The notes under the pieces were generated by a model. It was given only the letters and a program-made list of their open reading frames with translations, had not been told where the DNA came from and did no database searches. Source: Eledone cirrhosa (Eukaryota). From it: 64,000 nt of DNA. The position numbers and the translations under genes were made by a program. The stretch is from the NCBI GenBank assembly GCA_964016885.1, contig OZ024741.1:29698001-29762000 (forward strand), given 5' to 3'. Positions 3,744-60,350 of the stretch are shown here, piece by piece. The stretch's first letter is position 1, and each line of letters begins with the position of its first letter.

Positions 3744-4904
3744 ATGGAGATAGAGTTGGTCCTAAAAGACTATATGAAGAATATTCTCTTCATACGAAAG
3801 GACCGACTCTATGGCAGCATTTCGGTCTTAACAAAAGACAGGGAAACAGCTCAGAGGCTTTCCCTAAGCCCACTCTCATCAACAGCATACAGCTTCTATC
3901 CCTCCTACATGGGTAGAAGAACACAGAGAGTCAAAATACAGACAATACTGCCCACAATGGACTTCTGGTGGGCTATTGCTGGCTTCATAGACATGGGCGA
4001 GGACACAGTGCTATCAATGGGGAAGGCATCTGGAGATGCGTTCCTGGGAATGGGCCTCGACCTACTAGTCCAAATGAGGCCCGAAAGAATAGCGCAAATC
4101 CCGGATCGCATCTGGCTGGATGACCTCACCCCAATATATATAATTGTAGAGGGGAGAAGACCAGCATGCTATTCATGCACCGAAAGGGGACACGTTAAGG
4201 CTAACTGCCCGAATCGTATCCCCCAAAAAGGACTATTGCCCACACCTACCACAAACAGTACACCAACACCACCCACCTCCAAAAATACACTAATACCACA
4301 CACAGCAAACAAAATACAGACACCACCAACCACAAGCACAACACAAACATCACCACCACCAGCACCAAACACAAGCACGACACAAAAATCACCACCACCA
4401 TCACCAACCACAACACAAACATCACCACCAACATCACCAACCACAAGCACGACACAAACATCACCACCACCACCACAAAACACATTCCAAACAAATAATA
4501 AAAAAAACAGCAACAAATCTACCCCTCCCGCAAAAAAAAAACAACCAGACACCACGTCCCTCCCACCTAGCGCTGAAGAGTTTCCCCCAACTTCTGAAGA
4601 AGAAGGAGGAGAAGCCTTCAGACAAGTTAAAAGAAAAAAACGAAAGCACACACCCAGCACACCACAACAACAAATAACCCACACACAAACACCAACTCCA
4701 ATCAAAAACACCCCACCCTCGACAAACAAAAATAAATCTGCGCCTCCCCCCTTCGAAACATTGACAGCATCACAAAAAAAGACTTTACAATACACATATA
4801 TAAATAAAGAAAACAAAAAACTTTATCTCAACAGAGAACTTCACCCATTAAAAAATGATAAAGGTCCCTCTGGACCTTTATCGTTCCTTAAAAGAACAAT
4901 TTAA
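3744..4904 (+). CDS. Tx1 ORF1 (gag-like nucleic-acid-binding protein), main open segment
   Basis: Zinc knuckle CYSCTERGHVKANC (CX2CX4HX4C), Pro/Thr repeats, basic stretch KRKKRK. The original start may be the ATG at 3150, with upstream parts broken by stops and A-run frameshifts. Confidence 0.8.
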   Translation: MEIELVLKDYMKNILFIRKDRLYGSISVLTKDRETAQRLSLSPLSSTAYSFYPSYMGRRTQRVKIQTILPTMDFWWAIAGFIDMGEDTVLSMGKASGDAFLGMGLDLLVQMRPERIAQIPDRIWLDDLTPIYIIVEGRRPACYSCTERGHVKANCPNRIPQKGLLPTPTTNSTPTPPTSKNTLIPHTANKIQTPPTTSTTQTSPPPAPNTSTTQKSPPPSPTTTQTSPPTSPTTSTTQTSPPPPQNTFQTNNKKNSNKSTPPAKKKQPDTTSLPPSAEEFPPTSEEEGGEAFRQVKRKKRKHTPSTPQQQITHTQTPTPIKNTPPSTNKNKSAPPPFETLTASQKKTLQYTYINKENKKLYLNRELHPLKNDKGPSGPLSFLKRTI

Positions 4905-5143
4905 ACAGGACGTGAGCCCCCCCCCCCCCTGTTTAAAACCGTTAAATCGCGTCCTCTTGAAAGATTTCCCCATAACCTCCCCTCTCCCTGACACAACTCC
5001 AAATACCCCAACCCACCACACTCGGATACCCCCACACAACCACAAAACATCCCTCCACCCAACACACCCGACCCCATGGAAATTACACAACCCGGAGAGG
5101 TAGGTGCTTTTCTTTCTTCACTTTCAACACCAAAATAGATCAA

Positions 5144-8100: not shown

Positions 8101-8578
8101 GCCCGTTCGAGAAAAGCCCTACAGACACGGGCGCCCGGACAGGGATCCCGCGAAAAAGATCTGTCCCAGATGCGTGCGCGACGAGAAAACCGTTGCGCAC
8201 GCACTAGTACACTGCCCGGGCGTTGCCGATCTGTGGGGCTACGTCGAACGACTGCTGTCGCGTGTGGCGCCGATGCGATTGGCCGCCGAGTCTGTGGTGA
8301 ACATCAAGCCGCCTCCTCCCTTCAGAAATGAAGCAGAGGCGGTCTTTCTGTGCGTAATAGCCATGATGAAAGAGGTTGTGTGGTTGACGCGCCTGAAAGG
8401 TCTGAGGTCGGGTGACTTTCTCTCCGGCCAACACCTGGTTTACTTCTTCCGATACCACTTCGGAAGAAGGATCAGGATGGAGAGAGAAGTGCTTGGCCCT
8501 AGACAGTTTTATGAAAGGTGGGTGAAAGAAGCGAGAATGACTCGTGTAAATGGGCCTTCTCTCTACATTGTTCTGTAG
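5144..8578 (+). pseudogene. Tx1 ORF2 (APE endonuclease + reverse transcriptase + C-terminal Cys/His motif), disrupted
   Basis: LNARGL, GDWN, SYLDRF, SDH (APE); KSPGLDGLPYE, FRPITLLN, LDQSKAFDRVDH, RQGFPLSS, YADD (RT); CPRC..HALVHC. Frameshifts at the G-run 5401-5413 and near 7010-7020; in-frame TAG at 7139-7141. Confidence 0.93.
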
Positions 8579-21582: not shown

Positions 21583-22205
21583 TAGGGAAAATAAAATAAT
21601 AAATATAATAATCTAAAAGACGGTGCAGAGAGTTGAACGCTGAAAATTTGCCAGACAATTCTATTGAACACTTCTAAGAGAACCATATAATAACATTTCA
21701 CAACAGTAACAGCAATGAGGAGGGAACAAGAAGATATTGTAAACAGTATACGGAACGAAATCTAATTAAACACATATAGAAAACAAAATAGTTCTAAGTT
21801 ATTCAAGCTCATGTGGAAGATATTTCATGGTGTCAATGAACGTGGTTGTGTGCATTTGTTTGCATGTTTGTGTGTGTATGCGTGTGCGGCGTGCGTGGGT
21901 GTGTGTGTGTGAGAGAGAAATCGTATGTGGGAGAAAGACAGAGAGATCATCGAGAGACGGATAAAGTGAGAGGTTGCGAATGATATATATATATAGACAT
22001 ACACACACACACATATATATATATATATGTGTATATGTATATATAAATATATATGTCTATATACATATGTATGTATATACCTATATGTATATATATATAT
22101 ATATACTTATATATACATGATTATATATATATATATATATAAATTTAATCATATATATATAATAATATATAGAGGAATATAGGTATCTACATATATATAT
22201 ATAAA

Positions 22206-22271
<66 letters not shown>

Positions 22272-22681
22272 CTCATATATATATGTGTGTGTGTAAGTGT
22301 GTAAACACACAGCCAAAAAGGCGATAGAGCCTTACAGAGGGAATATAAGGTAAAAACCACATTCACAGTCATCTAACATTAAATTCGACCTACTTGACAG
22401 TGTTATAACATTAGCTATTGACTATTTACTTTACAAATTGAAGTCTTTTATATGCCAACATTTCTATTATTGACTACAAGATTGGAAGTGGTTTTATCCG
22501 CCATCTCCTTCTCTGTTGTCTCCCCTTTTCTAGAACTCTCTATATACAGACGTATAGACGAACAGACATTTATATATACACACAAACAAATATAGGTTAT
22601 TGAGTGTATATAGCTTGTAAAATGTAATTATACATATATAGTAAATTATATATATATATATATACACATACAGATATAGCA

Positions 22682-22726
<45 letters not shown>

Positions 22727-22757
22727 AAATTATATATATATACATAACATACATATA

Positions 22758-22788
<31 letters not shown>

Positions 22789-22799
22789 TGTTATATCTG

Positions 22800-22949
<150 letters not shown>

Positions 22950-23387
22950 CATATACATTAATGTGTATATTTGTATAACTGTATATACATAAAAGGACAT
23001 ACAGTTAAATATATATATGTTTGTAGTCGTGTGTGTGGCTGTCTTTTAACGCTAATTCCCGCGTGTGATACAGTGATTTTTTGCCGAGAAAAAATGCCAG
23101 ATTTTTAAAATAGATTAACTCCGGCGTGTGATGTCTTTTGTTTGGACTCGTTGTTTGAGCGTCAAATTGGAGTGCTCCGTGTTCGAGCAAGATTTTGGCC
23201 AGCTTACTAATTGGTCACATACTCAATCATTAGACATGTTTCTTTCAGATAGTCGGGGGGCATTGGAATAGTAAATATATAAAAGAATAAGAAAAGGTAT
23301 AACAGAAAGACGTAAGAAGGAATATCGATGCAAAGTCTGGCGACAAATATAGAGTGAGCACTGGCATAAAAGCAGAAAGACTATCGC

Positions 23388-23487
<100 letters not shown>

Positions 23488-23630
23488 CATATATATATAC
23501 TATACATATATATATAAGCATACATTGAAGTTGTAGCCGCATTAGAGCAGATGCCAATCGAATTGCTTGAGGCAGTCTCAAAACAATGTATTATACATAT
23601 ACATACATTTATATATAAATATATGTATGT

Positions 23631-23685
<55 letters not shown>

Positions 23686-23698
23686 TTCACTCTTTCAC

Positions 23699-23764
<66 letters not shown>

Positions 23765-23864
23765 CTGTATTTATCCCGGGTTCAATCGGAGGTAACCACA
23801 GTAAGTAAGGTACTCAATACATAGCAGAGTGTAAATATTTAATATAGAAATGGCTTTTACAATG

Positions 23865-23914
23865 GCTTTCCTGATGATATCCTCCTAATGAAACAGTTCT
23901 AGTCCTGTAGAAGC
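23865..23914 (+). ncRNA. Hammerhead-like motif in a PLE-type terminal repeat (duplicate near 29155-29204)
   Basis: GCTTTC-CTGATGA-tatcctcctaat-GAAA-CAG..CTG-TA-GAAGC; stem II is weak. Confidence 0.5.
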
Positions 23915-23915
23915 A

Positions 23916-23966
<51 letters not shown>

Positions 23967-24006
23967 ATGAAATATAAGAATCAAAGAACTGTTCAAAACA
24001 TTATTG

Positions 24007-24053
24007 TGCTTACAGCCGTTTCCTCGAAACCGAGCTTTGGATTCTTCGGAGCA
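24007..24053 (-). ncRNA. Minimal hammerhead-like motif with CCGAAGA core
   Basis: Minus strand TGCT-CCGAAGA-atccaaag-CTCG-gttt-CGAG-GAAA-CGGCTG-TA-AGCA. Confidence 0.5.
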
Positions 24054-24272
24054 ATTTATTAATGCATGGACAGTTATATGACCTCGTATATATATATATA
24101 TATAAATACACTTTGGCGCAATCTGGGTTACACATTCTGTAATTATGATAATAGACTATATATATATCAAGATAGAACAAGTTTTAAATTAGTTAAAACA
24201 TTATTCAACAGAGTACTCGAAACTTGGGCTAGTAGAGTATGACTATATTATAAAGAGTCGGGGCCCAATATA

Positions 24273-24318
<46 letters not shown>

Positions 24319-24411
24319 CATCATCATCATCATGATCTTCATTTAACGTCCATCTTCCACGCTAGCATGGGTTAAATATATATATATATATATTATATAT
24401 TGGGCTCCGAC

Positions 24412-24472
<61 letters not shown>

Positions 24473-24473
<1 letters not shown>

Positions 24474-25366
24474 GAGGTGTGTCAGAAACGTTCCAGGACT
24501 GATGTCACAAAAGATTAATTTCGAAACCAAACTTCACACTAAGAGTTTTCTCCTTCAAAGTAATTCCACTGGAGTCTAATGCACTTTTCCATCCTTTTCT
24601 GCCCCGCTTGCATGCACTCCTGGGAGGATTCATCCGGGATCCTCCGCAGTTCCGTCGTCACGGCCTTTTTGATGTCGTCCACGTCTTCAAAACGGGTCCC
24701 CGCCGGGTCGTACTCGAAGATCCATGACTCATCACCGGTGATGACTGTCACTAGCAAGTCTGGTTCGGTTTCAAGACGCTCGAGGATGTCCTGGTACACT
24801 TGCATGCGTCGACCCTTCTGGTCATTGTTCTGCAATGTTGGCACCATTTTCGCGCAGACTTTCCGCATGTCCAAATCTTCGGTGAGAATCTTCCAGACGC
24901 TGCCCAATTCATGCCCAGCTCATTTGCCATCAGTCGAACAGTCAGCCGACCATAGCTACGCACCATCTGCCTGACGAGCTCAACGTTGACCTCAGTACTG
25001 GTTGTTGAGGGCCTTCCGCTCCTGGGGTCATATTCCAAGTTCTTGCGTCCTTCTTTAAACCTCTTGCACCACTCAAAAACACGTGGGCCTGACATCGTCT
25101 CATCTCCATACACATGCTGCAGCAATTCCAGTGCTTCTGGCGAAGTTTTCAAGTGTTATCGTTGCTTTGTGCTCATTGCTTGACGGCCTGAAACAGAGGG
25201 CATGTATATAACATTATGAAGAAAAAGGTTTGATCGCTTCAGAGAGCTAAGATTACAGTACATACTCCAGGGGGATTACTTTTAAGGAGAAAACTCTTAG
25301 TGTGAAGTTTGGGTTTGAAATAAATCCTTTGTGACATCAGTCCTGGAACTTTTCTGAGGCACCTCG
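24473..25366 (-). mobile_element. Mariner (Tc1/mariner) internally deleted element
   Basis: ~100-bp imperfect TIRs starting CGAGGTG, TA flanks; HTH region (RVFEWCKRFKEGR..DPRSGRPST), KVCAKMVP, ITGDESWIFEYDP joined directly to GTRFEDVDDIK, so most of the DDD domain is missing. Confidence 0.95.
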
Positions 25367-25484
25367 TATATAAGTGTGTGTGTATATCCGGGGTTAAATT
25401 GGCGGTAACAACAGTAAGTAAGGTACTCAATACATAGCAGAGTATAAATATTTAATATAGAAAGGCCATTTCTATATTAAATAA

Positions 25485-25570
<86 letters not shown>

Positions 25571-26303
25571 AGAGAAAGGGGTAGATAGATAGATATGTGT
25601 GTATGTGAGTGTATGTATCTGTATAAATATGTATGTGTATAGGGACATAAACTGAGTCTTAAATTTTCTAGCCGGATTCTCAGAGGGTTCATTAATTTTG
25701 TGAGATGATTCCCCCGTGCCTCCAGCAAACCCAATCACCTCCCACAAGTGATTTCTGAAAAAAAAAACTTTTTATTTTTCCTTTTTTCTGTCGCTTTGTT
25801 TTGTTATCTTCCGTGAAGTAGAAGTGTCACACGTCGTACCATTATCTACATATCTTCCTAGCAACACTTGTCTACATACTTTTACTTATGCTCTCCCAAT
25901 ATGGCATAGTCCTGGAAAAGTTTTGTGATCTTCTTGCTATTTCAGGCTTTACAATTCTAACGAATAATTTATGAAGAATTATTTTCTACATTGTCACAGA
26001 AGGAGGCATACTGATACGAAAATGACTGCTAAACACTTTAATGTGTACTTTCTCTCTCTCTTGTAACCATAACGCTGGCGATCTATATTTCAGTATTAAT
26101 GAAACGAACTAGATAATAGAATTTAAATTAAATTAAACCAGGCCGAAATATCGATAAATACTAAGTGAGGAATCATTACAAGAACACAGATTGTACTTGA
26201 ATTCATTTAGAATGAACGTTTAATATATTTGTATTAAATGTGCGTATATTAAATTTTCACTGCCACATGGTTCTTTGATATTTATTTTTTTTAAATTATA
26301 AAG

Positions 26304-26413
<110 letters not shown>

Positions 26414-26478
26414 GTATATATACATACATATATATATATATATACGTATATATACATACATATATATATATATATATG

Positions 26479-26547
<69 letters not shown>

Positions 26548-26597
26548 GTATATATACATACATACATATATATATATATGCATATATATATATATAT

Positions 26598-26673
<76 letters not shown>

Positions 26674-26775
26674 CTATATATATACGTACATATATATATA
26701 CATATATATACATATATATACATATACATACATATATATATATATATATATACATATATATATACATATATATAC

Positions 26776-26862
<87 letters not shown>

Positions 26863-26985
26863 TATACATATGTATGTATGTGAGTATGTATGTATTATCT
26901 ATGTATGTATGTCTGTGTGTATTTATGTGTCTATGTCTGTCTGTATATATATATATATATATATACAGCTATATATAAATATAGG

Positions 26986-27040
<55 letters not shown>

Positions 27041-27853
27041 TAGGGTAGATATGTAACTCTGATAGCTGTATACATATGTATATGTATGCATATATATATA
27101 TACATATTATATTTTTATTTATTTAAAAAAAAATTTTTTAAACATATAACTAGATACATTGACTTCGAGAAGGAAATCTGGGAAAATATGACACGCCAAT
27201 ATACGGCCAGCAATCTTTATATTCGTGAGATTATGTTTGATTGTAGATACAACTACAACTACATATGTGCCTGTATAAATGGAAGAACCATAGTTCTATA
27301 AGTATGTCTGTCTTCTTACCTACCTATGTCGTACGTACATGTATGTGTTTGTTTAACTCGCTATATCGATCTTGCGGCAACAATTACTGGTTTCATAGCT
27401 CCAACAATTTACAGATATATTAAGAAAGTGTGATTGCATCTTATGACTTTTGATTTCCTCACGAACGCATCAAATTATCAACACTCTTCACATTAAATAC
27501 GCGAAAATAAGCACAAACGTACACATTAGCATACATACATATATACATACATTCATAGATGCTTACATATATGCATACATACACAAATACATACAAACAT
27601 ACGTGCATACATACATACGTACGTACATAGATACATAGATAAATACACTTTAAAATGAGATACAGAATGTCTTACATATATACGATGATTTGCAGTACCA
27701 TATACGGCAATGTAGACATTCACACTAACACACAAACACACTCACACACACACTCATGCATACATCTTTAGAAATTTTGCCTATTATATCATGCATATAT
27801 ATGTATACATATAAATGGTATGTGTATACATATATATATGTGAGGTGTATATG

Positions 27854-28335: not shown

Positions 28336-28434
28336 GTATATATGTAGTTGTATGTATGTATATATGTGTGAGTGTGGTGAGGCATAATATATATTGTCTA
28401 TTATTATCAGAATCTGAAAGAGGCTATGGGGCAG

Positions 28435-28634
28435 NNNNNNNNNNNNNNNNNNNNNNNNNNNNNNNNNNNNNNNNNNNNNNNNNNNNNNNNNNNNNNNNNN
28501 NNNNNNNNNNNNNNNNNNNNNNNNNNNNNNNNNNNNNNNNNNNNNNNNNNNNNNNNNNNNNNNNNNNNNNNNNNNNNNNNNNNNNNNNNNNNNNNNNNNN
28601 NNNNNNNNNNNNNNNNNNNNNNNNNNNNNNNNNN
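28435..28634. other. Assembly gap (200 N)
   Basis: Directly visible. Confidence 1.
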
Positions 28635-28714
28635 AGACGTAAGAAGGAATATCGATGCAAAGTCTGGCGACAAATATAGAGTGAGCACTGGCATAAAAGC
28701 AGAAAGACTATCGC

Positions 28715-28807
<93 letters not shown>

Positions 28808-28950
28808 CATATATATATACTATACATATATATATAAGCATACATTGAAGTTGTAGCCGCATTAGAGCAGATGCCAATCGAATTGCTTGAGGCAGTGTCA
28901 AAACAATGTATTATACATATACATACATTTATATATAAATATATGTATGT

Positions 28951-29001
<51 letters not shown>

Positions 29002-29014
29002 TTCACTCTTTCAC

Positions 29015-29054
<40 letters not shown>

Positions 29055-29205
29055 CTGTATTTATCCCGGGTTCAATCGGAGGTAACCACAGTAAGTAAGG
29101 TACTCAATACATAGCAGAGTGTAAATATTTAATATAGAAATGGCTTTTACAATGGCTTTCCTGATGATATCCTCCTAATGAAACAGTTCTAGTCCTGTAG
29201 AAGCA

Positions 29206-29254
<49 letters not shown>

Positions 29255-29579
29255 ATATATATATATGAAATATATGAAATATAAGAATCAAAGAACTGTT
29301 CAAAACATTATTGTGCTTACAGCCGTTTCCTCGAAACCGAGCTTTGGATCCTTCGGAGCAATTTATTAATGCATGGACAGTTATATGACCTCGTATATAT
29401 ATATATATATAAATACACTTTGGCGCAATCTGGGTTACACATTCTGTAATTATGATTATAGACTATATATATATCAAGATAGAACAAGTTTTAAATTAGT
29501 TAAAACATTATTCAACAGAGTACTCGAAACTTGGGCTAGTAGAGTATGACTATATAATAAAGAGTCGGGGCCCAATATA

Positions 29580-29619
<40 letters not shown>

Positions 29620-29727
29620 TGTATATATAATATCATCATCATCATCATGATCTTCATTTAACGTCCATCTTCCACGCTAGCATGGGTTAAAATATATATA
29701 TATATATATTATATATTGGGCTCCGAC

Positions 29728-29798
<71 letters not shown>

Positions 29799-29802
29799 TA
29801 TA

Positions 29803-30699
29803 CGAGGTGTGTCAGAAACGTTCCAGGACTGATGTCACAAAAGATTAATTTCGAAACCAAACTTCACACTAAGAGTTTTCTCCTTCAAAGTAATTCCACT
29901 GGAGTCTAATACACTTTTCCATCCTTTTCTGCCCCGCTTGCATGCACTCCTGGGAGGATTCATCCGGGATCCTCCGCAGTTCCGTCGTCACGGCCTTTTT
30001 GATGTCGTCCACGTCTTCCAAAACGGGTCCCCGCCGGGTCGTACTCGAAGATCCATGACTCATCACCGGTGATGACTGTCACTAGCAAGTCTGGTTCGGT
30101 TTCAAGACGCTCGAGGATGTCCTGGTACACTTGCATGCGTCGACCCTTCTGGTCATTGTTCTGCAATGTTGGCACCATTTTCGCGCAGACTTTCCGCATG
30201 TCCAAATCTTCGGTGAGAATCTTCCAGACGCTGCCCAATTCATGCCCAGCTCATTTGCCATCAGTCGAACAGTCAGCCGACCCATAGCTACGCACCATCT
30301 GCCTGACGAGCTCAACGTTGACCTCAGTACTGGTTGTTGAGGGCCTTCCGCTCCTGGGGTCATATTCCAAGTTCTTGCGTCCCTTCTTTAAACCTCTTGC
30401 ACCACTCAAAAACACGTGGGCCTGACATCGTCTCATCTCCATACACATGCTGCAGCAATTCCAGTGCTTCTGGCGAAGTTTTCAAGTGTTATCGTTGCTT
30501 TGTGCTCATTGCTTGACGGCCTGAAACAGAGGGCATGTATATAACATTATGAAGAAAAAGGTTTGATCGCTTCAGAGAGCTAAGATTACAGTACATACTC
30601 CAGGGGGATTACTTTTAAGGAGAAAACTCTTAGTGTGAAGTTTGGGTTTGAAATAAATCCTTTGTGACATCAGTCCTGGAACTTTTCTGAGGCACCTCG
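29803..30699 (-). mobile_element. Second copy of the deleted mariner, within the duplication
   Basis: Same TIRs, deletion and flanks as 24473-25366, with extra 1-bp insertions. Confidence 0.95.
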
Positions 30700-30819
30700 T
30701 ATATAAGTGTGTGTGTGTATATCCGGGGTTAAATTGGCGGTAACAACAGTAAGTAAGGTACTCAATACATAGCAGAGTATAAATATTTAATATAGAAAGG
30801 CCATTTCTATATTAAATAA

Positions 30820-30850
<31 letters not shown>

Positions 30851-31593
30851 AGGGAGAGAAAGGGGGTAGATAGATAGATATGTGTGTATGTGAGTGTATG
30901 TATCTGTATAAATATGTATGTGTATAGGGACATAAACTGAGTCTTAAATTTTCTAGCCGGATTCTCAGAGGGTTCATTAATTTTGTGAGATGATTCCCCC
31001 GTGCCTCCAGCAAACCCAATCACCTCCCACAAGTGATTTCTGAAAAAAAAAAACTTTTTATTTTTCCTTTTTTCTGTCGCTTTGTTTTGTTATCTTCCGT
31101 GAAGTAGAAGTCTCACACGTCGTACCATTATCTACATATCTTCCTAGCAACACTTGTCTACATACTTTTACTTATGCTCTCCCAATATGGCATAGTCCTG
31201 GAAAAGTTTTGTGATCTTCTTGCTATTTCAGGCTTTACAATTCTAACGAATAATTTATGAAGAATTATTTTCTACATTGTCACAGAAGGAGGCATACTGA
31301 TACGAAAATGACTGCTAAACACTTTAATGTGTACTTTCTCTCTCTCTTGTAACCATAACGCTGGCGATCTATATTTCAGTATTAATGAAACGAACTAGAT
31401 AATAGAATTTAAATTAAATTAAACCAGGCCGAAATATCGATAAATACTAAGTGAGGAATCATTACAAGAACACAGATTGTACTTGAATTCATTTAGAATG
31501 AACGTTTAATATATTTGTATTAAATGTGCGTATATTAAATTTTCACTGCCACATGGTTCTTTGATATTTATTTTTTTTAAATTATAAAGTGTG

Positions 31594-31722
<129 letters not shown>

Positions 31723-31929
31723 GTATATATACATACATATATATATATATATACGTATATATACATACATATATATATATATATATGCACATATATATAT
31801 ATATATAATATATTATATATATATATATATATATACACGTATATATACATACATACATATATATAATATATATGCATATATATATATATATATATAATAT
31901 ATATATATGTATATGTATATTATATATAT

Positions 31930-31975
<46 letters not shown>

Positions 31976-32079
31976 CTATATATATACGTACATATATACA
32001 TACATATATATACATATATATACATATACATACATATATATATATATATATATACATATATATATACATATATATATAC

Positions 32080-32156
<77 letters not shown>

Positions 32157-32288
32157 TATACATATGTATGTATGTGAGTATGTATGTATTATCTATGTAT
32201 GTATGTCTGTGTGTATTTATGTGTCTATGTCTGTCTGTATATATATATATATATATATATACAGCTATATATAAATATAGGAATTATA

Positions 32289-32356
<68 letters not shown>

Positions 32357-33178
32357 GTTATAGGGTAGATATGTAACTCTGATAGCTGTATACATATGTA
32401 TATGTATGCATATATATATATACATATTATATTTTTATTTATTTAAAAAAAAAATTTTTTAAACATATAACTAGATACATTGACTTCGAGAAGGAAATCT
32501 GGGAAAATATGACACGCCAATATACGGCCAGCAATCTTTATATTCGTGAGATTATGTTTGATTGTAGATACAAACTACAACTACATATGTGCCTGTATAA
32601 ATGGAAGAACCATAGTTCTATAAGTATGTCTGTCTTCTTACCTACCTATGTCGTACGTACATGTATGTGTTTGTTTAACTCGCTATATCGATCTTGCGGC
32701 AACAATTACTGGTTTCATAGCTCCAACAATTTACAGATATATTAAGAAAGTGTGATTGCATCTTATGACTTTTGATTTCCTCACGAACGCATCAAATTAT
32801 CAACACTCTTCACATTAAATACGCGAAAATAAGCACAAACGTACACATTAGCATACATACATATATACATACATTCATAGATGCTTACATATATGCATAC
32901 ATACACAAATACATACAAACATACGTGCATACATACATACGTACGTACCATAGATACATAGATAAATACACTTTAAAATGAGATACAGAATGTCTTACAT
33001 ATATACGATGATTTGCAGTACCATATACGGCAATGTAGACATTCACACTAACACACAAACACACTCACACACACACTCATGCATACATCTTTAGAAATTT
33101 TGCCTATTATATCATGCATATATATGTATTACCATATAAATGGTATGTGTATACATATATATATGTGAGGTGTATATG

Positions 33179-33226
<48 letters not shown>

Positions 33227-33282
33227 TATATATATATACACACACATATATATATAATATATATATACATATACACACACAC

Positions 33283-33330
<48 letters not shown>

Positions 33331-33338
33331 ATACATAT

Positions 33339-33405
<67 letters not shown>

Positions 33406-33433
33406 TGTGTGTGTATATATATATATATATAAA

Positions 33434-33483
<50 letters not shown>

Positions 33484-33533
33484 ATATATAGTATATATAT
33501 ATATATATATATGTATATATAAAATATACATAT

Positions 33534-33596
<63 letters not shown>

Positions 33597-34424
33597 GTAT
33601 ATATGTAGTTGTATGTATGTATATATGTGTGAGTGTGGTGAGGCATATTATATATTGTCTATTATTATCAGAATCTGAAAGAGGCTATGGGGCAGGTTTG
33701 AAGTCATGCATTTTAAAAAGGAAGAATAGATAGTGTGAGAATAAGATATATATGATGATGATGAGGAGATGGAGGGGGGGAGGAGGAGGAGAGGAAAAGC
33801 AGCAGGAGGAGAAAGAAGAACACGAGCAATGATGATGTAAGGATGTTGGATGTAGGGGCGTTGACGATGATTATGCTTGTTCTGTTTATGATGGTGATGA
33901 TGATTAGGGTGAAAGTAGGATTACGATCCTAAAAGCGGTGGTGGTAACAGTGACACAAGCAGAGATTCCTATACCGACATTGTTATACATTCTCACAACA
34001 ACAACAAGAAAATGCATATTTTTTATTACAGTTGAAAAGCAACAAATTCGGAGGGAGCGCGGGGTTTATTTGATTAAGTCGACCTCAGTACTGCCCTTGT
34101 ATGCTATGTTAAGGGGTCGCGGAATACTCCGTCATATGTAAAACTGCAAGGTCGAAGACCTTTGTTATTAACCCTTAATTGTTAACCTGAATTTTTACTG
34201 GAGGATCTCGATCAAACTGTTTATATTGACTCCCAGAATCGACCCACTATCTTTCCTTAGAATTTAATGCTCGATACTTAAACGACCACCTCTTATACAT
34301 AGTAATGCCTGGCAAAAATAAAGATGCCATTTGCTGAAACACAGTTTATAATTGAAACAGGGGTACATCCCAGACAAAAATATGAGATATAGATAGAAAA
34401 TGTCTCATGAAGATTGAATATATA

Positions 34425-35332: not shown

Positions 35333-35689
35333 GGATTGACTGTGTAGTTGCTAGTTAAGGTAGCTTAAAATGAGTGAGAATAAGAAGAAAACAAGAACGG
35401 GGGGGGGGGGGTCCTCATCAGTTGTCTACTGGGGTCTCGGATATTTTCAACGCTTTAAAGACAATATATCTACCGCACAGAGGCTTCAATAACTGGGTAA
35501 GTTATTGGGAAAACGGAGGAAGGAGGTAAGCCAAATAGAAGGGATAAGGGAAGAATATATATATGCATACATATACATATATATATAAATATACATACAT
35601 ATATATATATACATATATATAATATATATATTATATATATATATACATAAAATATTATATATATATATATATAAATAAATAAATAAATA

Positions 35690-36240
35690 AATACATACAC
35701 AAGCACAATAACAACAAACACATATAAAAACACACTAGTAAACTAAGATAGAATACAATAACCAAAACACAGTCACCCAAACACGAACACACATCAAACA
35801 CTATACACACACGCAAACGCATACGCAGAGAAGAAGACGATAAATAAATTAAATAAATAAATAAACAGATTAAATAAAGATGGCGTAGACATACAATACA
35901 ACAGGAGGAAACATAATAGCACATCTGCCAAGACCGTCAGTGGTGCTATTATGTTTCCTCCTGTTGTATTGTATGTCTACGCCACCACTGACGGTCTTGC
36001 AGATGTGCAACGAAAGAACTTTGTTAGACTATATATATGTGTTTGTGTCTATATATCTGTCTTTTTGACCGTTGGTCAGTCAATGGTAAACATTGAGGAG
36101 AGAATAAATTAACTGATATAACAGATACAGAAGCGAAAACCAACCAAAACTGTGAGTGCGTTCTGTTATTAATTCTGGCAATATTATTACAATATGACCC
36201 TCACAAAGTATAACAATATATATAAATATTGTTATACTGT
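35690..36240 (+). mobile_element. Penelope-like 3' UTR/pLTR remnant with decayed hammerhead
   Basis: Ends ATGACCCTCACAAAGTATAAC like 40543-40564; contains CTGACGG..TTGCA-gatg-TGCAAC-GAAA-GAAC-TT. Confidence 0.65.
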
Positions 36241-37534: not shown

Positions 37535-37633
<99 letters not shown>

Positions 37634-37679
37634 TTTGCTTTGCAAGGTTTTTGATATGAAATCGTGTGTCGATACAAAT

Positions 37680-38032
37680 ATTGTTATACTTGGGGAGAGT
37701 CATATTGTTGTAATAATATTGCCAGAGATAATAACAGAACACACTCACTGTTTTGTTGGTTCTCGCTTCTGTATCTTTTATATCTCCATAGTTAATTTAT
37801 TTGGTAATCAATGTTTATCATGATTGACCAACGGTTAAAAATACAGATATAAATATATATATATATATAGTCTATCAAAGTTCTTTCGTTGCACATCTGC
37901 AACATCATCAATGGAACTATTATGTTTCCTCCCAATGTATTGCATCTTGCTGTAATGTCCACGCCAGTGAGTGTGTTCTGTTATTATTTCTGGCAATATT
38001 ATTACAACAATATTACCCTCCACAAGTATAAC
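37680..38032. mobile_element. PLE pLTR remnant with ~70-bp inverted ends and a decayed minus-strand hammerhead
   Basis: 37680-37750 is the reverse complement of 37965-38032; minus strand TTGATGA-t-GTTGCA-gatg-TGCAAC-GAAA-GAAC-TT at about 37869-37915. Confidence 0.68.
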
Positions 38033-38039
38033 GATATAT

Positions 38040-39482
38040 ATACATATATATATATATGTATACAGACGCACAGTAGTATGTATATATATACATACATGCA
38101 CAGATATATATATGTACGTATGGATTCATGGATTCACCGAACATTTATTATAATGTTCGGCGTGTTTGTAAACATACATAATTATATTTAAGTAACAGCC
38201 GTACTAAGAGTGAGAAATGAAATTTCGGTTCATTTTTTCTGTTTATCGTTTTCGGTGCCCCGGCCGATTAACTCACTCGATATGCAAATTAAGCTGCTCA
38301 GCCGTTAATATGCAAAAGGAAAGTATATACTTTCAGACGTTCAATCATCTGGCAGAAAGGTATTCGTTACTGACGATAGCTAATAAGCTTGAAACTAGTA
38401 CATCGTTCCTTTGTCAGTGTTGAACAAATGAGCAACGATGGTTGCTAGGCACTGTACGGCTTAATTCGGGATGTTTGTTTACCAACACACCGAGCATTAT
38501 ATTTAATGTTCGGTGAATCCATACGTACATATATATGTGTGCATGTATGTATATATATATATATATACATACTATTGTGCGTCTGTATACATATATGTAT
38601 GTAGGTATACATACTTATATTTAAGTAACAGCCGTACTAAGAGTGAAAAATGAAATTTCGTTTCATTTTTTCTGTAAATGGTTTTCGGTGCCCCGGCCGA
38701 TTAACTCACTCGGTATGCAAATTAGGATGCTCAGCCGTTAATGTGCATAAGGAAAGTATATACTTTCAGACGTTCAATCATCTGGCAGGAAGGTACACGT
38801 TGCTGACGTTGAACAAATGAGCAACGATGGTTGCAAGTCATTGTACGGCTTAATTCGGGATGTTTGTTTACAAACACACCGAGCATTATAATGAATGTTC
38901 GGTGAATCCATACGTACGTATATATGTGTGCATGTATGTATATATATATATATACATACTACTGTACGTCTGTATACATATATGTATGTACGTATAAATA
39001 CTTATATTTAAGTAACAGCCGTACTCAGAGTGAGAAATGAAATTTCGTTTCATGTTTTCTGTTTATCGTTTTCGGTGCCCCGGCCGATTAACTCACTCGA
39101 TATGCAAATTAGGCTGCTCAGCCGTTAATATGCATAAGGAAAGTATATACTTTCAGACGTTCAATCATCTGGCAGGAAGGTATACGTTGCTGACGATAGC
39201 TAATAAGCTTGAAACTAGTACATCGTTCCTTTGTCAGTGTTGAACAAATGAGCAACGATGGTTGCTAGACACTGTACGGTTTAATTCGGGATGTTTTTTT
39301 ACCAACACACCGAGCATTATAATGAATGTTCGGTGAATCCATACGTACATATATATATATATGTGTGCATGTATGTATATATATATATATATACATACTG
39401 CTGTACGTCTGTATACATATATATATGTACGTATACATACTTATATTTAAGTAACAGCCGTACTAAGAGTGAGAAATGAAAT
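38040..39482 (+). mobile_element. Retrozyme-like tandem array: about 3 units of ~430 bp plus a 5' inverted segment
   Basis: CTGACG cores at 38370, 38803 (3' half of the ribozyme deleted) and 39190; 38040-38172 is an inverted copy of part of the unit. Confidence 0.85.
39184..39226 (+). ncRNA. Minimal type I hammerhead ribozyme (best copy in the array)
   Basis: ACGTTG-CTGACGA-t-AGCT-aata-AGCT-t-GAAA-CTAG-TA-CATCGT; stem I extended by CTGGCAGGAAGG / CCTTTGTCAG. Confidence 0.82.
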
Positions 39483-39488
39483 AAGAAG

Positions 39489-39530
<42 letters not shown>

Positions 39531-39533
<3 letters not shown>

Positions 39534-39792
39534 AAAAGATAACAAGGACGATTGGTTTCTCCTTCATTACATTTATTCTAATGAAGGAGTAACCCATCGT
39601 CCTAGTTATCTTTTCAATATAATAAACTCTGTATAGCTCTACACCTCGACACACAAGTGAACCTACAGTAACTCCAAGTTACACTCCCTATATATATATA
39701 TATATTGAAAAGATAACAAGGACGATGGGTTACTCCTTTCATTAGAATAAATGTAATGAAGGAGTAACCCATCGTCCTTGTTATCTTTTCAA
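39531..39792. repeat. Two ~88-bp palindromes with mutually inverted 9-nt loops
   Basis: 39531-39617 has loop CATTTATTC; 39705-39792 has loop GAATAAATG. Confidence 0.93.
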
Positions 39793-39816
39793 TATATATA
39801 TATATATATATATATT

Positions 39817-40564
39817 GTTATACTTTGGGAGGGTCATGTTGCCAATAAGAAACACACGCACCAATTGCTTTCACTTCAATTTATTATATATTTATACATT
39901 TATAAATTTACAAATCTATAAATTTCTGGTTGGTCTATTTTTATTTCTATGTTCTCTAATTTACCCTTGTGTTCTATCTAGAACACAAAATAGAACACAA
40001 GGGTAAATTAGAGAACATAGAAATAAAAATAGAATCTACACACAGAAAAGATGCAATGTTTAGACAAATTACAGAGGCAATAAACATAAAAGAATTACAT
40101 CCAAAATTAAATAGAAAATATGAGTGGAACAGCAACATCACAACTTACAATTAAGGACAAAATGAAAACACACACACACATAGAACAAACAACCAACCAA
40201 TAACATGTAAATAAATAAATAAATAAACAAATAGATAAATGAACATAAACACACACAGACACCCGGACGTGGCGCATGCGCAAACTGAGCACACAACACA
40301 CACACAGAAACAAAATGGCGTAGGACAGAAGAAAGGAAAGGCACAGAAACAAAGAAAGGAATCCCCAGTCACTGAAGAGGTCACAGAATGTGTGACGAAA
40401 GGACTATGACTATATATAAACAACTACCTGTTTGTGGAACCAACTAACCAACCAGAAATTTATAGATTTGTAAATTTATAAATTTATAAATATATAAAAA
40501 ATTGAAGTGAAAGCAACTGGTGCGTGTGTTTCTTATTGGCAACATGACCCTCCCAAAGTATAAC
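39817..40564 (+). mobile_element. Penelope-like element 3' part: GIY-YIG C-terminus, 3' UTR, hammerhead, ~120-bp inverted ends
   Basis: ORF 39969-40154 DAMFRQITEAINIKELHPKLNRKYEWN; 39817-39935 inverted at 40447-40564. Confidence 0.85.
40367..40411 (+). ncRNA. Minimal hammerhead ribozyme in the PLE terminus
   Basis: AGTCA-CTGAAGA-g-GTCACA-gaatg-TGTGAC-GAAA-GGAC-TA-TGACT. Confidence 0.8.
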
Positions 40565-40621
40565 ACTATCGGTTTCAACAAACGATTTCAGATAAAGAAT
40601 CTTTCTAAACAAATTCAGAAA

Positions 40622-40662
<41 letters not shown>

Positions 40663-54932: not shown

Positions 54933-54983
<51 letters not shown>

Positions 54984-54984
54984 C

Positions 54985-55612
54985 AAATAACGAAACGAAA
55001 TTAAATTTCGTTTCGTTTGTAACTCACTTTTGTATGACTGACGCTTAAACAATTAAGTTAAAGATGTACATCCATATATGTATACTGAAATACTAGTATG
55101 TATATGAATACACACACGTATATATATGTAGATGTACCAAGTTTTTTTCACTGGTCACTTTACTGTGAGTGGCCAGCTATTCTGTATGTAAACACACAGA
55201 CAAACCGGTTTTTAGAGTCATACTGTATCGTCTCCGTTGAACCGGTACTTACTCACACTCTATGCAAATTAGTCTGCCCACTACTAATTTTCATAGAAAA
55301 AGCTATATAACGATATGTGCTTTTACGATTCTCTAGAGAGGCCGGAAGATAGGTAAATATTGCTGATGAGTTGTAACAACAACGAAACTAGTTCAATATT
55401 CCTTGTCTGGCTTTCTGGAGAATAGAGGAAAGGTGTTTCCTCAAAAACCAGTATGACTCTAAAAACCGGTTTGTCTGTGTGTTTACATAGCTGGCCACTC
55501 ACAGTAAAGTGACCAGTGAAAAAAACTTGGTACATCTACATATATATACGTGTGTGTATTCATATACATACTAGTATTTCAGTATACATATATGGATGTA
55601 CATCTTTAACTT

Positions 55613-55617
<5 letters not shown>
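54985..55617 (+). mobile_element. Diverged retrozyme-like monomer with a 5' inversion (~170-bp inverted arms 55052-55225 / 55449-55615)
   Basis: Shares motif order and helices with the 38-39 kb unit; flanked by (TA)n. Confidence 0.78.
55356..55400 (+). ncRNA. Minimal type I hammerhead ribozyme
   Basis: AATATTG-CTGATGA-GTTGT-aaca-ACAAC-GAAA-CTAG-TT-CAATATT: 7-bp stem I, 5-bp stem II, intact core, GUU triplet. Confidence 0.9.
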
Positions 55618-55688
<71 letters not shown>

Positions 55689-55961: not shown

Positions 55962-58900
55962 CTAAGGCGGGTAAAATTCCCGAGATCCATGGACGAGTTC
56001 TCTCCAGCGGTCTCTGTCCCTCATTATCGCTGCCATATCCTGCATCTCCAACAGACCAGTGTCTGTCCTTAGGGCATCAACATATGTTAACCTTGGTCTT
56101 CCTCTTCTAGTGTGTCCATGTAGGGGCTCCCAAAGGAGCACTGAGTGCAATGTCAACTCTGGATGTCGGTGAGCATGTCCAACCTACCTCAGTCTCCTCT
56201 GTGTCACTTTTGAGCTGACTCTTGGGATGCTCCCATACAGCTCTGAGTTTTTCATCCTCAGCGTATACTGATTAATGTTCAGAGCCATCCTCAACATTCT
56301 CGTGTAGCACCCATCCACCATCTGAGTGAGTTTCTTGGTCAGTGTCCAAGTCTCAGAACCATACAGCAGCACAGACTCCACTACAGCAATGAAGAGGCGG
56401 ATTTTCAGGTCTCTACGAAGGTCCGACTTCCACACCGATCTCAAGCTGTGGCACGCCGCCCAGGCCTTGCTCTTCCTCTCAACCACATCATCCTCCGTAT
56501 TCCCAATCTTTGCTCCCAAATACAGGAAGTCCTCAACCAATTCCAGCGGCTTCCCGCCTACATTAGTGATCCCCTCTGGCTTCTCAACATTCTCTACCAG
56601 ATATTTTGTTTTAGTCTCATTCATTCTCAGCCCCACACTCATCGACACAGTCTCAACCTCCCGCATCAAATCCTCTGCCTCCTTCACTGTATTTGTCACC
56701 AAAACTATGTCGTCGGCAAATTCAGCATCCGATACCTTTTTCGCCCCAACTCTCCTGCTCTGAGCCGGTGCTACAGTAAAGCCAGAGTCCTGGTGTTTCT
56801 CTAGTGCAAGGCGCATACAATAGTCCACTACGATGACAAAAAGGTAGGGAGCCAATGTATCTCCCTGGAGCACTCCAGCCAGTATCTCAAAGAACTCTGT
56901 CATCCCATCAGGTGTAATGACTTGGGCTTTGGTGTTGGTGTAGAGCAGTGATATCAGGTCCACTATCCTCTTGGGGATTCCATAAGCCTGTAAGATCTTC
57001 ATCAGGCAGTAACGGTCCACAGAATCAAAGGCCTTCCTAAAGTCAATGAAAACCATGACCGCAGGAAGGCACTTTGCTCTAGCTCCCTCTAATATCCTCC
57101 TCAGCATCAGGATGTGACTGGTGGTTGATCTACCCTCTCTGAAGCCGTTCTGGTGGTCCCTGTGCTTCTTCTCCATCTCAGGCCGGATCCTGTTAAGAAT
57201 CATCCTGTTGAGGGTCTTTGCCACAAGTGACGTCAGTGAGATCCCCCGGTAGTTGTTGGTGTTAGAGAGATCTCCCTTCTTTGGCTCTGGGACGATGTTA
57301 CTGATCCTCCACTGATTCGGGGCAACTCCTTTCTCCAGTGCCCCGTTACAGAACCCCAGGATGATATCATCAAAATCACACCTCTTCATCACCTCTGATG
57401 CCACTCCATCTTCTCCATGAGCCTTGCCCTCCTTGATCTTCTTCTTGGCTCTCTGAAGCTCCTCTATGGTGAAGGGCTCTGTCTCAACATCCAGTTCCTC
57501 AAACAGCCGCCTGATCTCCCCTGTGCTCTGGGCTGTGGAGGGTGGCTCTCCTAGTAGGGTCCTAAAATGGTCTAGCCATTTCCTCTTCCTATCCTCGGGC
57601 CCCGTTCCCTGGATCTGACTCGAACACCTTTTCTTCCTCCCTGTGATCTCGTTGATGATCATCCAGCTCTCCTTACATCCAGATCTGTCAACCGCTCTCT
57701 CCACACTTCTGATCTTCTCTATCAGTGCCTCCTCTCTGACCTCAGTGTAAGCGGTACAGAGCTCTTCCCTCATCACCTCCACAGTCTCCATCCTCTCCTC
57801 CGTAGGATCAGCATAGAATTGGTCCCTGGCAGCTTTCAGGTGTTCTCTGGCTGCACACACTTTGGGGTTTGCAGAGCTGACGTGCTTCCCTTTGTTCTTT
57901 TTCCTCGGCACCAGGGTTTCACTTGCTTTCGCCACTGCATTGGTGAAGTGCCCGTACCTCCTCGTCACACTCTCCTCAGTCCATCCAATCTCTCTCTCCT
58001 CTGACTCTCCACACAGAGCACTAAACCTGTTTCTCACTTCCACTGTGAACCTCTCCTGTAGCTTATCATCTTCCTTGAAAGCTCCCCAGTCATAGATTGT
58101 TCTCCGGGGCTGAGCCTTGCTCTTTCTTAAGCTCACGCGGACCTCACTCATAACAAGCCGGTGGTCACTACCCAGTGTACTGAAATAGCTGTATGGTTCC
58201 GTGTTCAGAACACTATTCCGCCACTTTATCCTCACCAGAATGAAATCAATCTGGGACTTGGACAGGTGCACATCTGAGATATAGGTCCACATCTTGCCCA
58301 GATTCTTCCTAAACATTAGGTTGGTCACCATCAAGTTCGCCTCCAGAAGGGTGTCTCTTAGTAGTCTTCCATTTCGGTTGGTGTTGTTATGGAAGTACCA
58401 GCAAGGATCTTCACTGCCCTCCTTACTCAGATGTGCATTGAAGTCCCCCAAAACAAGCAGGATATTGTGTGCCTGAGTGGTGTTGACAGCTCTACACACC
58501 TCCTCATGGAACTCCTCCGCATTCACATCACTGTCCCCCTCGGTTGGACTATAGGCTGAGATGACTGTCAGTCTTGGGTTTCCATTGAAGGTCACCCTCA
58601 ACACTCGCGGGGAGATAGGCATTATTTCCCTCACCAACAGATTGGTTTTTGCACTGAACACAAAACCCACTCCTCCCACTGCAGCATTTGTTGTGTTCTT
58701 CACTGCCGATGTAGTGATGAGCTGGCTCTTCCTCCCGATTATCACACTCCTCACGGGCTCATCGTGTAGAATCCTGTGTTCTTGGATCGCAAGTATCTGT
58801 ATACCACTCTCCTCGAACAGATGTCCCAACTCCTCTCTCTTCTCCAGCGTCCGAATAGTCCTCACATTCAAAGTGCCCATTTTGATGGCTCCTCTGCAGG

Positions 58901-59096
58901 ACAAAACTGCATTCTTTATATTTGTCTCAGAGACAGCTGATCCATCATCCACTGGTCCCCTCTGTGGCTCTAAGCCAGCAGAGTCATAACGACCAGGCTG
59001 CTCCTTGACAGTGTAATTAGGGGCTCTAACCCTAGTGCTGTTAGATCGACTCTCCATATTTCTTTTCAATGGCTGACAATACCTTACCGGCGCCAC
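55962..59096 (-). CDS. RTE APE endonuclease-reverse transcriptase; one in-frame TAG at 56184-56186
   Basis: TLNVRT, IQEHR, AYSPT, LGDFNA, QIDFIL, SDH; NYRGISL, FIDFRKAFDSV, GVLQGDTLAPYLF, FADD, FLYLG. The frame continues past the stop: VGHAHRH..LLWEP.HG..RRGRP..TYVD. Confidence 0.92.
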
Positions 59097-59542: not shown

Positions 59543-60142
59543 CAGGAAGGTATACGTTGCTGACGATAGCTAATAAGCTTGAAACTAGTACAGCATTCCT
59601 TTGTCAGTGTTGAACAAATGAGCAACGATGGTTGCTAGAAACTGTACACCTTAATTCGGAATGTTTGTTTACAGACACACCGAGCATTATAATAAATGTT
59701 CGGTGAATCCATACGTACATATATATACATTCTACTGTACGTCTGTATACATATATGTATGTACGCATACATACTTATATTTAAGTAACAGCCGTACTAA
59801 GAGTGAGAAATGAAATTTCGTTTCATTTTTTCCGTTTACCGTTTTCGGTACCCCGGCCGATTAATTCACTCGATATGCAAATTAGGCTGCTCAGCCGTTA
59901 ATATGCATAAGGAAAGTTTATACTTTCAGACGTTCAACCATCTGGCAGGAAGGTATACGTTGCTGACGATAGCTAATAAGCTTGAAACAAGTAAAGCGTT
60001 CCTTTGTCAGTGTTGAACAAATGAGCAACGATGGGTGCTAGAAGCTGTACGGCTTAATTCGGGATGTTTGTTTACAAACACACCGAGCATTATAATAAAT
60101 GTTCGGGGAAACCATACGTACATATTTATATATGTGTGCATG

Positions 60143-60206
<64 letters not shown>

Positions 60207-60308
60207 CTACTGTACGTCTGTATACATATATGTATGTACGTATACATACTTATATTTAAGTAACAGCCGTACTAAGAGTGAGAAATAAAATTTCCTTTCA
60301 TTTTTTTC

Positions 60309-60312
<4 letters not shown>
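59543..60312 (+). mobile_element. Second retrozyme-like array (about 1.9 units, period ~403 bp)
   Basis: Same unit as 38-39 kb; hammerhead cores at 59560 and 59963. Confidence 0.85.

Positions 60313-60350
<38 letters not shown>

Follow-up and report, generated by a model that had tools for sequence, protein, structure and literature searches.

The window, meaning the whole stretch of 64,000 nucleotides analysed here, comes from Eledone cirrhosa (GCA_964016885.1, contig OZ024741.1, positions 29,698,001 to 29,762,000). Positions 54985-55617 of the window hold a single insertion of a protein-free tandem unit, flanked by (TA)n tracts. We call this unit type family B, and use family A for the repeats at 38-39 kb and 59.5-60.3 kb; unit numbering starts at the predicted hammerhead cut. 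Features of the insertion, and the two family A arrays of the window, are given by window position.

54936-54979, no strand: (TA)n target, left
54977-55225, minus strand: left arm of the B insertion, a 5′-truncated inverted piece (unit 56-302) with 96% identity to a real B monomer by blastn
54980-55043, minus strand: "tail" between the short and long insertion ends, about 57-70 nt, with a GAAATTT hairpin
55032-55039, minus strand: 3′ strand of the long-range helix, AGTCATAC, the true partner by the minus-arm fold and by four Watson-Crick allele pairs across loci
55044-55057, minus strand: small hairpin whose loop and 3′ side contain the "short" insertion end (unit 227-234)
55216-55223, minus strand: 5′ strand of the long-range helix, GTATGACT, by position and fold of the minus arm
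55226-55621, plus strand: right arm of the B insertion, unit 300-466 and then 1-233, by tabulated ends
55261-55296, plus strand: TATGCAAATTAG hairpin, whose 5′ strand carries the octamer ATGCAAAT (z -5.8)
55297-55324, plus strand: hairpin ahead of extended stem I, AAAAAGC.../...GCTTTT (in A, AAAGTA/TACTTT)
55329-55422, plus strand: extended stem I surrounding the ribozyme (fold of 55325-55440, z -4.6)
55356-55400, plus strand: predicted type I hammerhead, stems I-III, stem I open, a fold found in both the MFE and the centroid structure
55425-55442, plus strand: hairpin H1, GAGGAAA/TTTCCTC (in A, GAGCAAC/GTTGCT), with compensatory alleles
55451-55458, plus strand: long-range 5′ strand GTATGACT of the plus arm, without a partner on that arm
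55491-55516, plus strand: hairpin CTGGCCACT/AGTGACCAG, whose inner four pairs covary among B subfamilies
55530-55601, plus strand: long TA-rich hairpin
55620-55686, no strand: (TA)n target, right
38035-39482, plus strand: family A insertion, with an inverted left arm at 38035-38179 and tandem units after it
59543-60315, plus strand: second family A array

An earlier note on this DNA had taken the 633 bp as one unit. The insertion instead consists of two arms joined head to head, 55046-55225 being an inverted copy of 55449-55621 (95.5%), and the B unit is about 466 bp long (range 462-470 bp). The left arm finishes in (TA)n at what we call the long 3′ end. The right arm finishes in (TA)n at the short 3′ end, has a 7-nt deletion in its TTTAC hairpin, and stops at unit 233, short of the true long-range partner (unit 240-247). 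The long-range pair of the earlier note survives in part: on the plus strand, GTATGACT/AGTCATAC is an artefact of the inversion, AGTCATAC at 55216 being the mirror of GTATGACT at 55451, while the true partners sit together on the minus arm (55223-55216 with 55039-55032), and the pair folds there and in complete monomers. The insertion contains only one ribozyme and no ORF of at least 120 aa. A transcript of the whole insertion is predicted to fold its arms into a long perfect duplex in place of the unit fold, and because of this duplex and the single ribozyme the copy is unlikely to be a source of new insertions.

Other elements lie in the same window. A 970-aa frame at 56184-59096 on the minus strand, 560 bp from the B insertion, has the Pfam domains Exo_endo_phos_2, RVT_1 and DUF6451 and looks like a LINE of RTE-like type; three long frames at 3744-8578 (plus strand) are also LINE-like in look, one ORF1-like and an endonuclease-RT split in two. 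Blocks at about 21983-27647 and 28400-33626 are repeated (e.g. 23871/29161, 24971/30303 and 26395/31704), which suggests either that about 5.3 kb was duplicated locally or that the assembly is at fault near the run of N at about 28.6 kb.

Ribozyme-to-ribozyme monomers were collected in 59 rows, some of which repeat overlapping loci; 50 are B rows of 462-470 bp and nine are A rows of 403-479 bp. A genome search with the middle part of 54985-55617 returned 46 matches, many in arrays with a period of 462-470 bp. An exact octamer-plus-hammerhead pattern, with A's commonest stem II start excluded, matched 8,231 times in the 3.0-Gb genome (95 among the first 100 matches listed are B), and the pattern with family A spacing matched 18,097 times; reversed controls of both patterns gave no matches. 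Motif copies in the genome number about 8,000 of B type and 18,000 of A type. Copies are dispersed over many contigs and long tandem arrays are also present, with at least 30 units near C1:5.74 Mb; GC is about 0.31-0.39 in covariance-model matches. Part of the ribozyme can be lost from a unit, as in the family A unit at window 38808, where deletion of stems II and III leaves a 387-bp period (Tandem Repeats Finder).

The earlier note had described the primary sequence as strongly different from that of the 38-39 kb unit. This was overstated, since A and B can be aligned end to end and collinearly at 61-64% identity in a sequence-only alignment. Its count of at least two subfamilies holds: A and B are separate families, and several subfamilies are present in each. 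No third family that shares the ribozyme was found among the matches listed. Pattern searches with excluded letters or altered spacings gave mutated A/B copies, and the other pattern matches, among those listed, were A subfamilies and unrelated single motifs. No A/B unit stood beside the unlike motifs at 11 loci (L121-L131) or at L095, L106 and L113. A metagenome scan with the pattern gave three matches, none like A or B, sited in apparently bacterial coding regions.

The predicted ribozyme has stem I AATATTG/CAATATT, stem II GTTGT/ACAAC, a core of CUGAUGA and GAAA, a short palindrome, ACUAGU, as stem III, and the triplet GUU, so that CUGANGA, GAAA and NUH are all found at 55356-55400. The cut is presumably after GUU, between 55393 and 55394, where the hammerhead consensus would place it. 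Rfam Hammerhead_HH9 (RF02275) matches full-length at 55345-55416 with 37.7 bits (E 7.7e-8), below its gathering score of 52, and at gathering level Rfam gave no match in the window. Motifs named in the earlier note were located at or near the places given there: AATATTG at 55356, CTGATGA at 55363, GTTGT/ACAAC at 55370-55383, GAAACTAGT at 55384, CAATATT at 55394, GTATGACT at 55451, CTGGCCACT at 55491, AGTGACCAG at 55508, TATGCAAATTAG at 55261 and ACTAATTTTCATAG at 55283. Two of the helices that it quoted carry a mismatch in the window copies, a U-U in stem I of the A copies (ACGTTG/CATCGT) and a C-A in the CTGGCCACT/AGTGACCAG hairpin. Judged by its sequence, in which every feature expected at that level is found, the insertion at 54985-55617 is a non-LTR retrozyme. 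Contigs from an unspecified library show the B unit with a 466-nt go-back joint, a joint that tandem DNA yields as well.

Eight real monomers folded as circles had z values of -4.0 to -12.9 against 15 dinucleotide shuffles each, values that are inflated by TA-rich palindromes. About 13 predicted helices, compared by eye as a series, come in the same order in A and B, as the earlier note had proposed: stem I with its extension, H1, the long-range helix with four hairpins inside it, a multiloop carrying two more, then the octamer hairpin, one further hairpin, and stems II and III. Fifty pairs coincide exactly in the two families, and 75 of the 139 B pairs fall within 2 columns of an A pair. RNAalifold on sequence-only alignments found a double change in 18 of 75 and in 19 of 79 pairs.

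A covariance model was built from 14 B copies over 222 nt, with the ribozyme excluded. All five A copies in the window were its best non-self matches, full length and at 49.5-69.1 bits, and the best other match was partial at 34.4 bits. A sequence-only model gave the same five copies 24.9-40.3 bits with partial cover, leaving the first hairpin uncovered; the gap in bits between the models is not purely structural, as their information content is 0.59 and 0.38 bits/position. Pairs defined in B outside the core are broken in A in 23-26 of about 100 cases, against 41-42 in permutations that preserve base composition (p=0.0002). The five matched copies and the deficit of broken pairs speak for the earlier note's claim of selection on the structure of the whole RNA, which it had tied to alignment or covariation between the units outside the hammerhead core.

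Other outcomes of the two-family test are weaker. Double changes outside the core number 6-11 against about 6 in the null (p 0.03-0.61), a modest excess that counts against our main explanation; with B-defined pairs they number 9-11 against 6 (p 0.03-0.17). In the reverse direction, A-defined pairs read in B are broken in 33-37 cases against 41-42 (p 0.03-0.14). Indels misregister several helices in the alignment behind this test.

Covariation is clearest at the long-range helix, 8 bp formed by strands about 175-190 nt apart, which occurs in four fully Watson-Crick states at 49, 23, 6 and 5 loci. It is fully paired in 92 of 121 locus-allele rows, and most of the other rows are breaks confined to one locus or motifs picked wrongly. 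One strand changes at three positions, and these are the exact partners of the three that change on the other, a coincidence with a chance of 1 in 56 before complementarity is even required. On a tree of 13 monomers the helix needs four compensatory events, position 4 changing twice.

Shorter helices vary in the same manner. H1 in A has A-U, G-U and G-C states in 37, 7 and 11 loci. At position 3 of stem I, family A alternates between U-G, G-U, A-U and U-A, which pair only on the plus strand. The inner four pairs of the CTGG hairpin show four paired states in B, and the multiloop stem is GAGTGAG/CTCACTC in 53 loci and GAGTGGG/CCCACTC in six. Compensatory alleles also separate subfamilies inside A and inside B. 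Variants common to at least three loci have a ratio of kept double changes to other breaks of 10:20, against 10:171 for rare variants (Fisher p=5e-5). Three observations count against the main explanation: the outer pair of B's CTGG hairpin is commonly mismatched (the commonest allele of the hairpin, at 14 loci, has an A-A), stem II of family A is closed by U-U, also a commonly mismatched paired position, and the strand test of G-U against A-C, with all cases pooled, did not reach significance (37:24, p=0.12). A model-fitted alignment is 94.3% paired, a level reached in none of 500 shuffles, but it leans to its model and we do not take its pair counts as proof. We conclude from these comparisons that the fold outside the ribozyme is probably under constraint.

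The octamer hairpin behaves otherwise. The earlier note had described it as compensatory, with the hairpin re-closed by another sequence. The 5′ strand, with ATGCAAAT, is nearly invariant in both families and the 3′ strand varies with mismatches, so the hairpin is a case of sequence conservation, not covariation. The hammerhead repeat satellite 2 of newt reportedly has an octamer in its promoter. An snRNA-type promoter is not supported by the U1 upstream regions of this genome: the full octamer is upstream of one of ten U1 loci (10 of 42 U1 matches examined), and the best blastn match has E 0.07. The U1 upstream regions (L255-L264) have two motifs in common, one about 60 nt and the other about 260 nt upstream; the farther of them weakly resembles the sequence directly before the octamer in family A (15/18, E 1.8).

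Insertion ends are also regular. The 3′ ends of B (81 in all) are bimodal: 39 lie at unit 227-234, another 40 at 298-303, and (TA)n follows 76 of the 81. Those of A fall at 210-229 (52 of 122) and 275-284 (41 of 122), with (TA)n next in 74. Short and long sites of the two families align with each other as homologous places. The short end falls within the loop and 3′ side of the small hairpin that directly precedes the long-range 3′ strand, and the long end within a mostly unpaired stretch of the next multiloop. Every B locus with both ends seen (28 of 28) carries a long end on one arm and a short end on the opposite one. Head-to-head insertions of A combine long with short in 20 of 40 cases and never long with long or short with short; 20 of the 40 have at least one end elsewhere, which counts against the main explanation. 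At 36 B head-to-head junctions the 5′ breakpoints are spread along the unit.

The median divergence between opposite arms is 0.72%, against 3.66% to other loci. When arms were compared for a circular versus a linear template, the nearest other locus was at 0.45%, and the arms were that close in only 7 of 31. At one locus, L184 (G000:C3:77328500-77331500), the arms differ by 7.95% against the median of 0.72%; two subfamilies were possibly joined there in one insertion, or insertions are nested.

An inverted 5′-truncated arm, a tail at one end and a (TA)n target are all Penelope-type features. Our main explanation is that this is a protein-free tandem retrozyme that keeps pairing along the whole unit, likely because a Penelope-like RT/endonuclease recognises the fold and would start copying at two fixed internal sites; we give it a probability of roughly 0.7. 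The pairing of a long with a short end is the "tail" signature of Penelope, and the fold is therefore likely a scaffold for the starts of reverse transcription. Tandem units would be transcribed, and the hammerhead would cut the transcript into monomers, which may be circularised. The enzyme of an autonomous Penelope-like element, acting in trans, would nick both strands of a (TA)n tract and, with the two start sites presented by the conserved fold, reverse transcription would begin from the short site on one strand and from the long site on the other. Each of the two cDNAs would end at a random point, and a head-to-head joint would connect them. The few source copies that are still mobile, rather than every copy in the genome, would be the ones under selection for the fold.

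Penelope reverse transcription is the closest relative of that of telomerase. A more specific version of the explanation, which we offer only tentatively, is that the 400-500-nt RNA serves as a telomerase-RNA-like scaffold with two fixed starts for a dimeric Penelope-type RT, one per target strand. If this is true, the covarying helices would amount to the first map of the structure of a Penelope template RNA, and the tandem and inverted insertions of the family would follow from the rule of one long and one short end.

The proposed enzyme would have to come from elsewhere, as the unit has no RT or GIY-YIG endonuclease ORF and so is not itself an autonomous Penelope-like element. Among the Penelope-like elements compared, no autonomous one with an A- or B-like end was found, which counts against the main explanation, as does the tail of about 57-70 nt, longer than the published 30-40 bp. 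At seven loci with Penelope-like ORFs neighbouring A/B arrays no end was shared; Pfam on these ORFs gave only RVT_1, weak and in one of the seven, and we take them to be Penelope-like from motifs and anatomy.

An abundant, young, TA-inserting Penelope-like family adjoins some A/B copies and occurs in the window (loci elsewhere include L194, G000:C1:52959000-52964700, and L216 and L230). Among 150 scored of 31,794 candidates its identity is 94-100%. It has open frames of up to about 1,200 aa, an Asn-rich stretch and a hammerhead-like motif of its own, after which several 3′ ends run into (TA)n (at about +22, +118, +200-223 and +249-265). A role as the partner is not supported: its hammerhead and ends are different, and blastn found no significant similarity to A/B beyond TA-rich sequence.

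End pieces of autonomous Penelope-like elements lie in the window at 35673-36219 (plus), 37611-37914 (minus), 37965-38037 (plus), 39812-39840 (minus) and 40541-40643 (plus), with 39969-40109 listed among them; the set includes an endonuclease-end fragment. Some of the pieces abut the family A insertion; the set as a whole has (TA)n targets in common with the retrozymes and is nested with them. A hammerhead-like motif lies at 40372. Just after the A array, 39493-39822 holds near-perfect short inverted repeats (arms of 50 nt, 100%) between TA tracts. A different family of CUGAUGA...GAAAC motifs occurs at window 23871 (plus), 29161 (plus) and 37059 (minus) and at L199:1949, the L199 motif being directly upstream of a 585-aa Penelope-like frame.

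Of the alternatives the strongest, though we think it unlikely, is that the fold is kept for the circular RNA's own life (stability, ligation, a ribozyme held competent or blocked, host-protein binding) and that the ends are set by short T/A-rich sequence matches to the target rather than by structure. Metazoan retrozyme RNAs do accumulate as highly self-paired circles (PMC7229834). Some covarying helices, H1 and stem I, are distant from both ends, and both ends have TTAAT/TTTAT-like sequence able to anneal to (TA)n. The long (TA)-rich tracts in the units would anneal better, yet few ends are there, while the ends that are used occupy homologous positions in the structure of two families that share only about 63% identity. 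Strict pairing of long with short speaks rather for an ordered enzyme complex.

Local inverted repeats in TA-rich sequence can self-correct, and many of the helices are just such repeats. Compensation might then come from the mechanics of mutation (template switching, palindrome correction) or from single-stranded DNA structure, with no selection on an RNA fold outside the ribozyme. The insignificant G-U versus A-C test and the weak double changes outside the core in the two-family test would fit this. We nevertheless rate it as quite improbable, in that four compensatory changes occur in the long-range helix, whose strands are about 175-190 nt apart with hairpins between them, G-U intermediates are kept in H1 and stem I, and loops and linkers change freely.

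Unequal crossover or rolling-circle amplification of DNA might instead have spread the unit, mainly as a satellite, with the likeness of folds inherited without constraint. This has in its favour the long tandem arrays (at least 30 units near C1:5.74 Mb) and the local amplification invoked for retrozyme arrays in a 2026 preprint (10.64898/2026.07.22.740005), but as the main route it is largely refuted and hardly credible given dispersed copies, fixed 3′ ends in (TA)n, variable 5′ ends, inverted arms and fewer broken pairs than expected at the observed divergence; it may lengthen single arrays.

These findings bear on how animal retrozymes are mobilised. Families A and B link a covarying fold to the rule of one long and one short end, a signature that purified Penelope protein produces in vitro, and they name helices and sites to mutate. 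The unit is also a small, naturally varied template for the study of Penelope reverse transcription.

Several known systems can be set beside these families. Non-LTR retrozymes of coral, mussel and axolotl are tandem non-coding repeats that self-cleave and accumulate as circles (PMC7229834). Those of metazoans share with A and B the tandem, low-GC, non-coding repeats (150-450 bp) with one type I hammerhead per unit, the thousands of copies, the several families per genome and the highly self-paired predicted circle, and the U-U at the stem II base of family A recalls axolotl HHR_Amex2 (PMC7229834). The B units are slightly longer at 462-470 bp (A, 403-502), and expression and cleavage were demonstrated for the metazoan elements, whereas for A and B they are predicted. 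In its accessible text PMC7229834 gives MFE folds and does not mention covariation, inverted arms, two fixed 3′ ends or a tail. In the accessible literature, including PMC4918200 and PMC7761336, we found no covariation analysis of a whole animal retrozyme, although an earlier description may exist, and likewise no account of two fixed insertion ends in one. The review PMC7761336 describes retrozyme repeats as having no conserved motif that points to a partner, and plant retrozymes as similar to one another in predicted architecture. The full-length match to Hammerhead_HH9 (RF02275) stays below gathering score, and stem III of B is the short ACUAGU palindrome.

Newt satellite 2 is a hammerhead tandem repeat for which an internal snRNA-type promoter has been reported (PMC2220036), a parallel left unsupported by the octamer in one of ten U1 upstream regions of this genome. 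Vertebrate retrozymes have been proposed to be non-autonomous derivatives of Penelope-like elements, mobilised by the enzymes of the latter (bioRxiv 10.64898/2026.07.22.740005). The basis there is co-occurrence and pLTR similarity; for A and B no pLTR similarity was found, and the basis is insertion anatomy.

Penelope itself leaves an inverted 5′-truncated copy and a 30-40-bp tail at one end, in microsatellite targets (PMC8557442), and a purified Penelope protein, assayed in vitro, cleaves both strands of AT-rich DNA, extends them, and initiates reverse transcription at two internal positions that delimit the tail (PMC11167929). Head-to-tail non-autonomous Penelope-like derivatives have been described in Chlamys (PMC8557442; PMC11167929). 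A and B differ from such elements in lacking an ORF for RT or endonuclease, in their tail of 57-70 nt and in their full hammerhead stems I-III, and no autonomous partner that matches them was found among those compared. They resemble the Penelope-like elements with a C-terminal endonuclease in their partial tandems, inverted 5′-truncated arm, one-end tail and (TA)n targets, and Penelope-like elements also in the hammerhead upstream of two internal ends (PMC8557442; PMC11167929). The kind of element is thus a known one, and what is new is the link of a covarying fold to a strict end pattern of the Penelope type.
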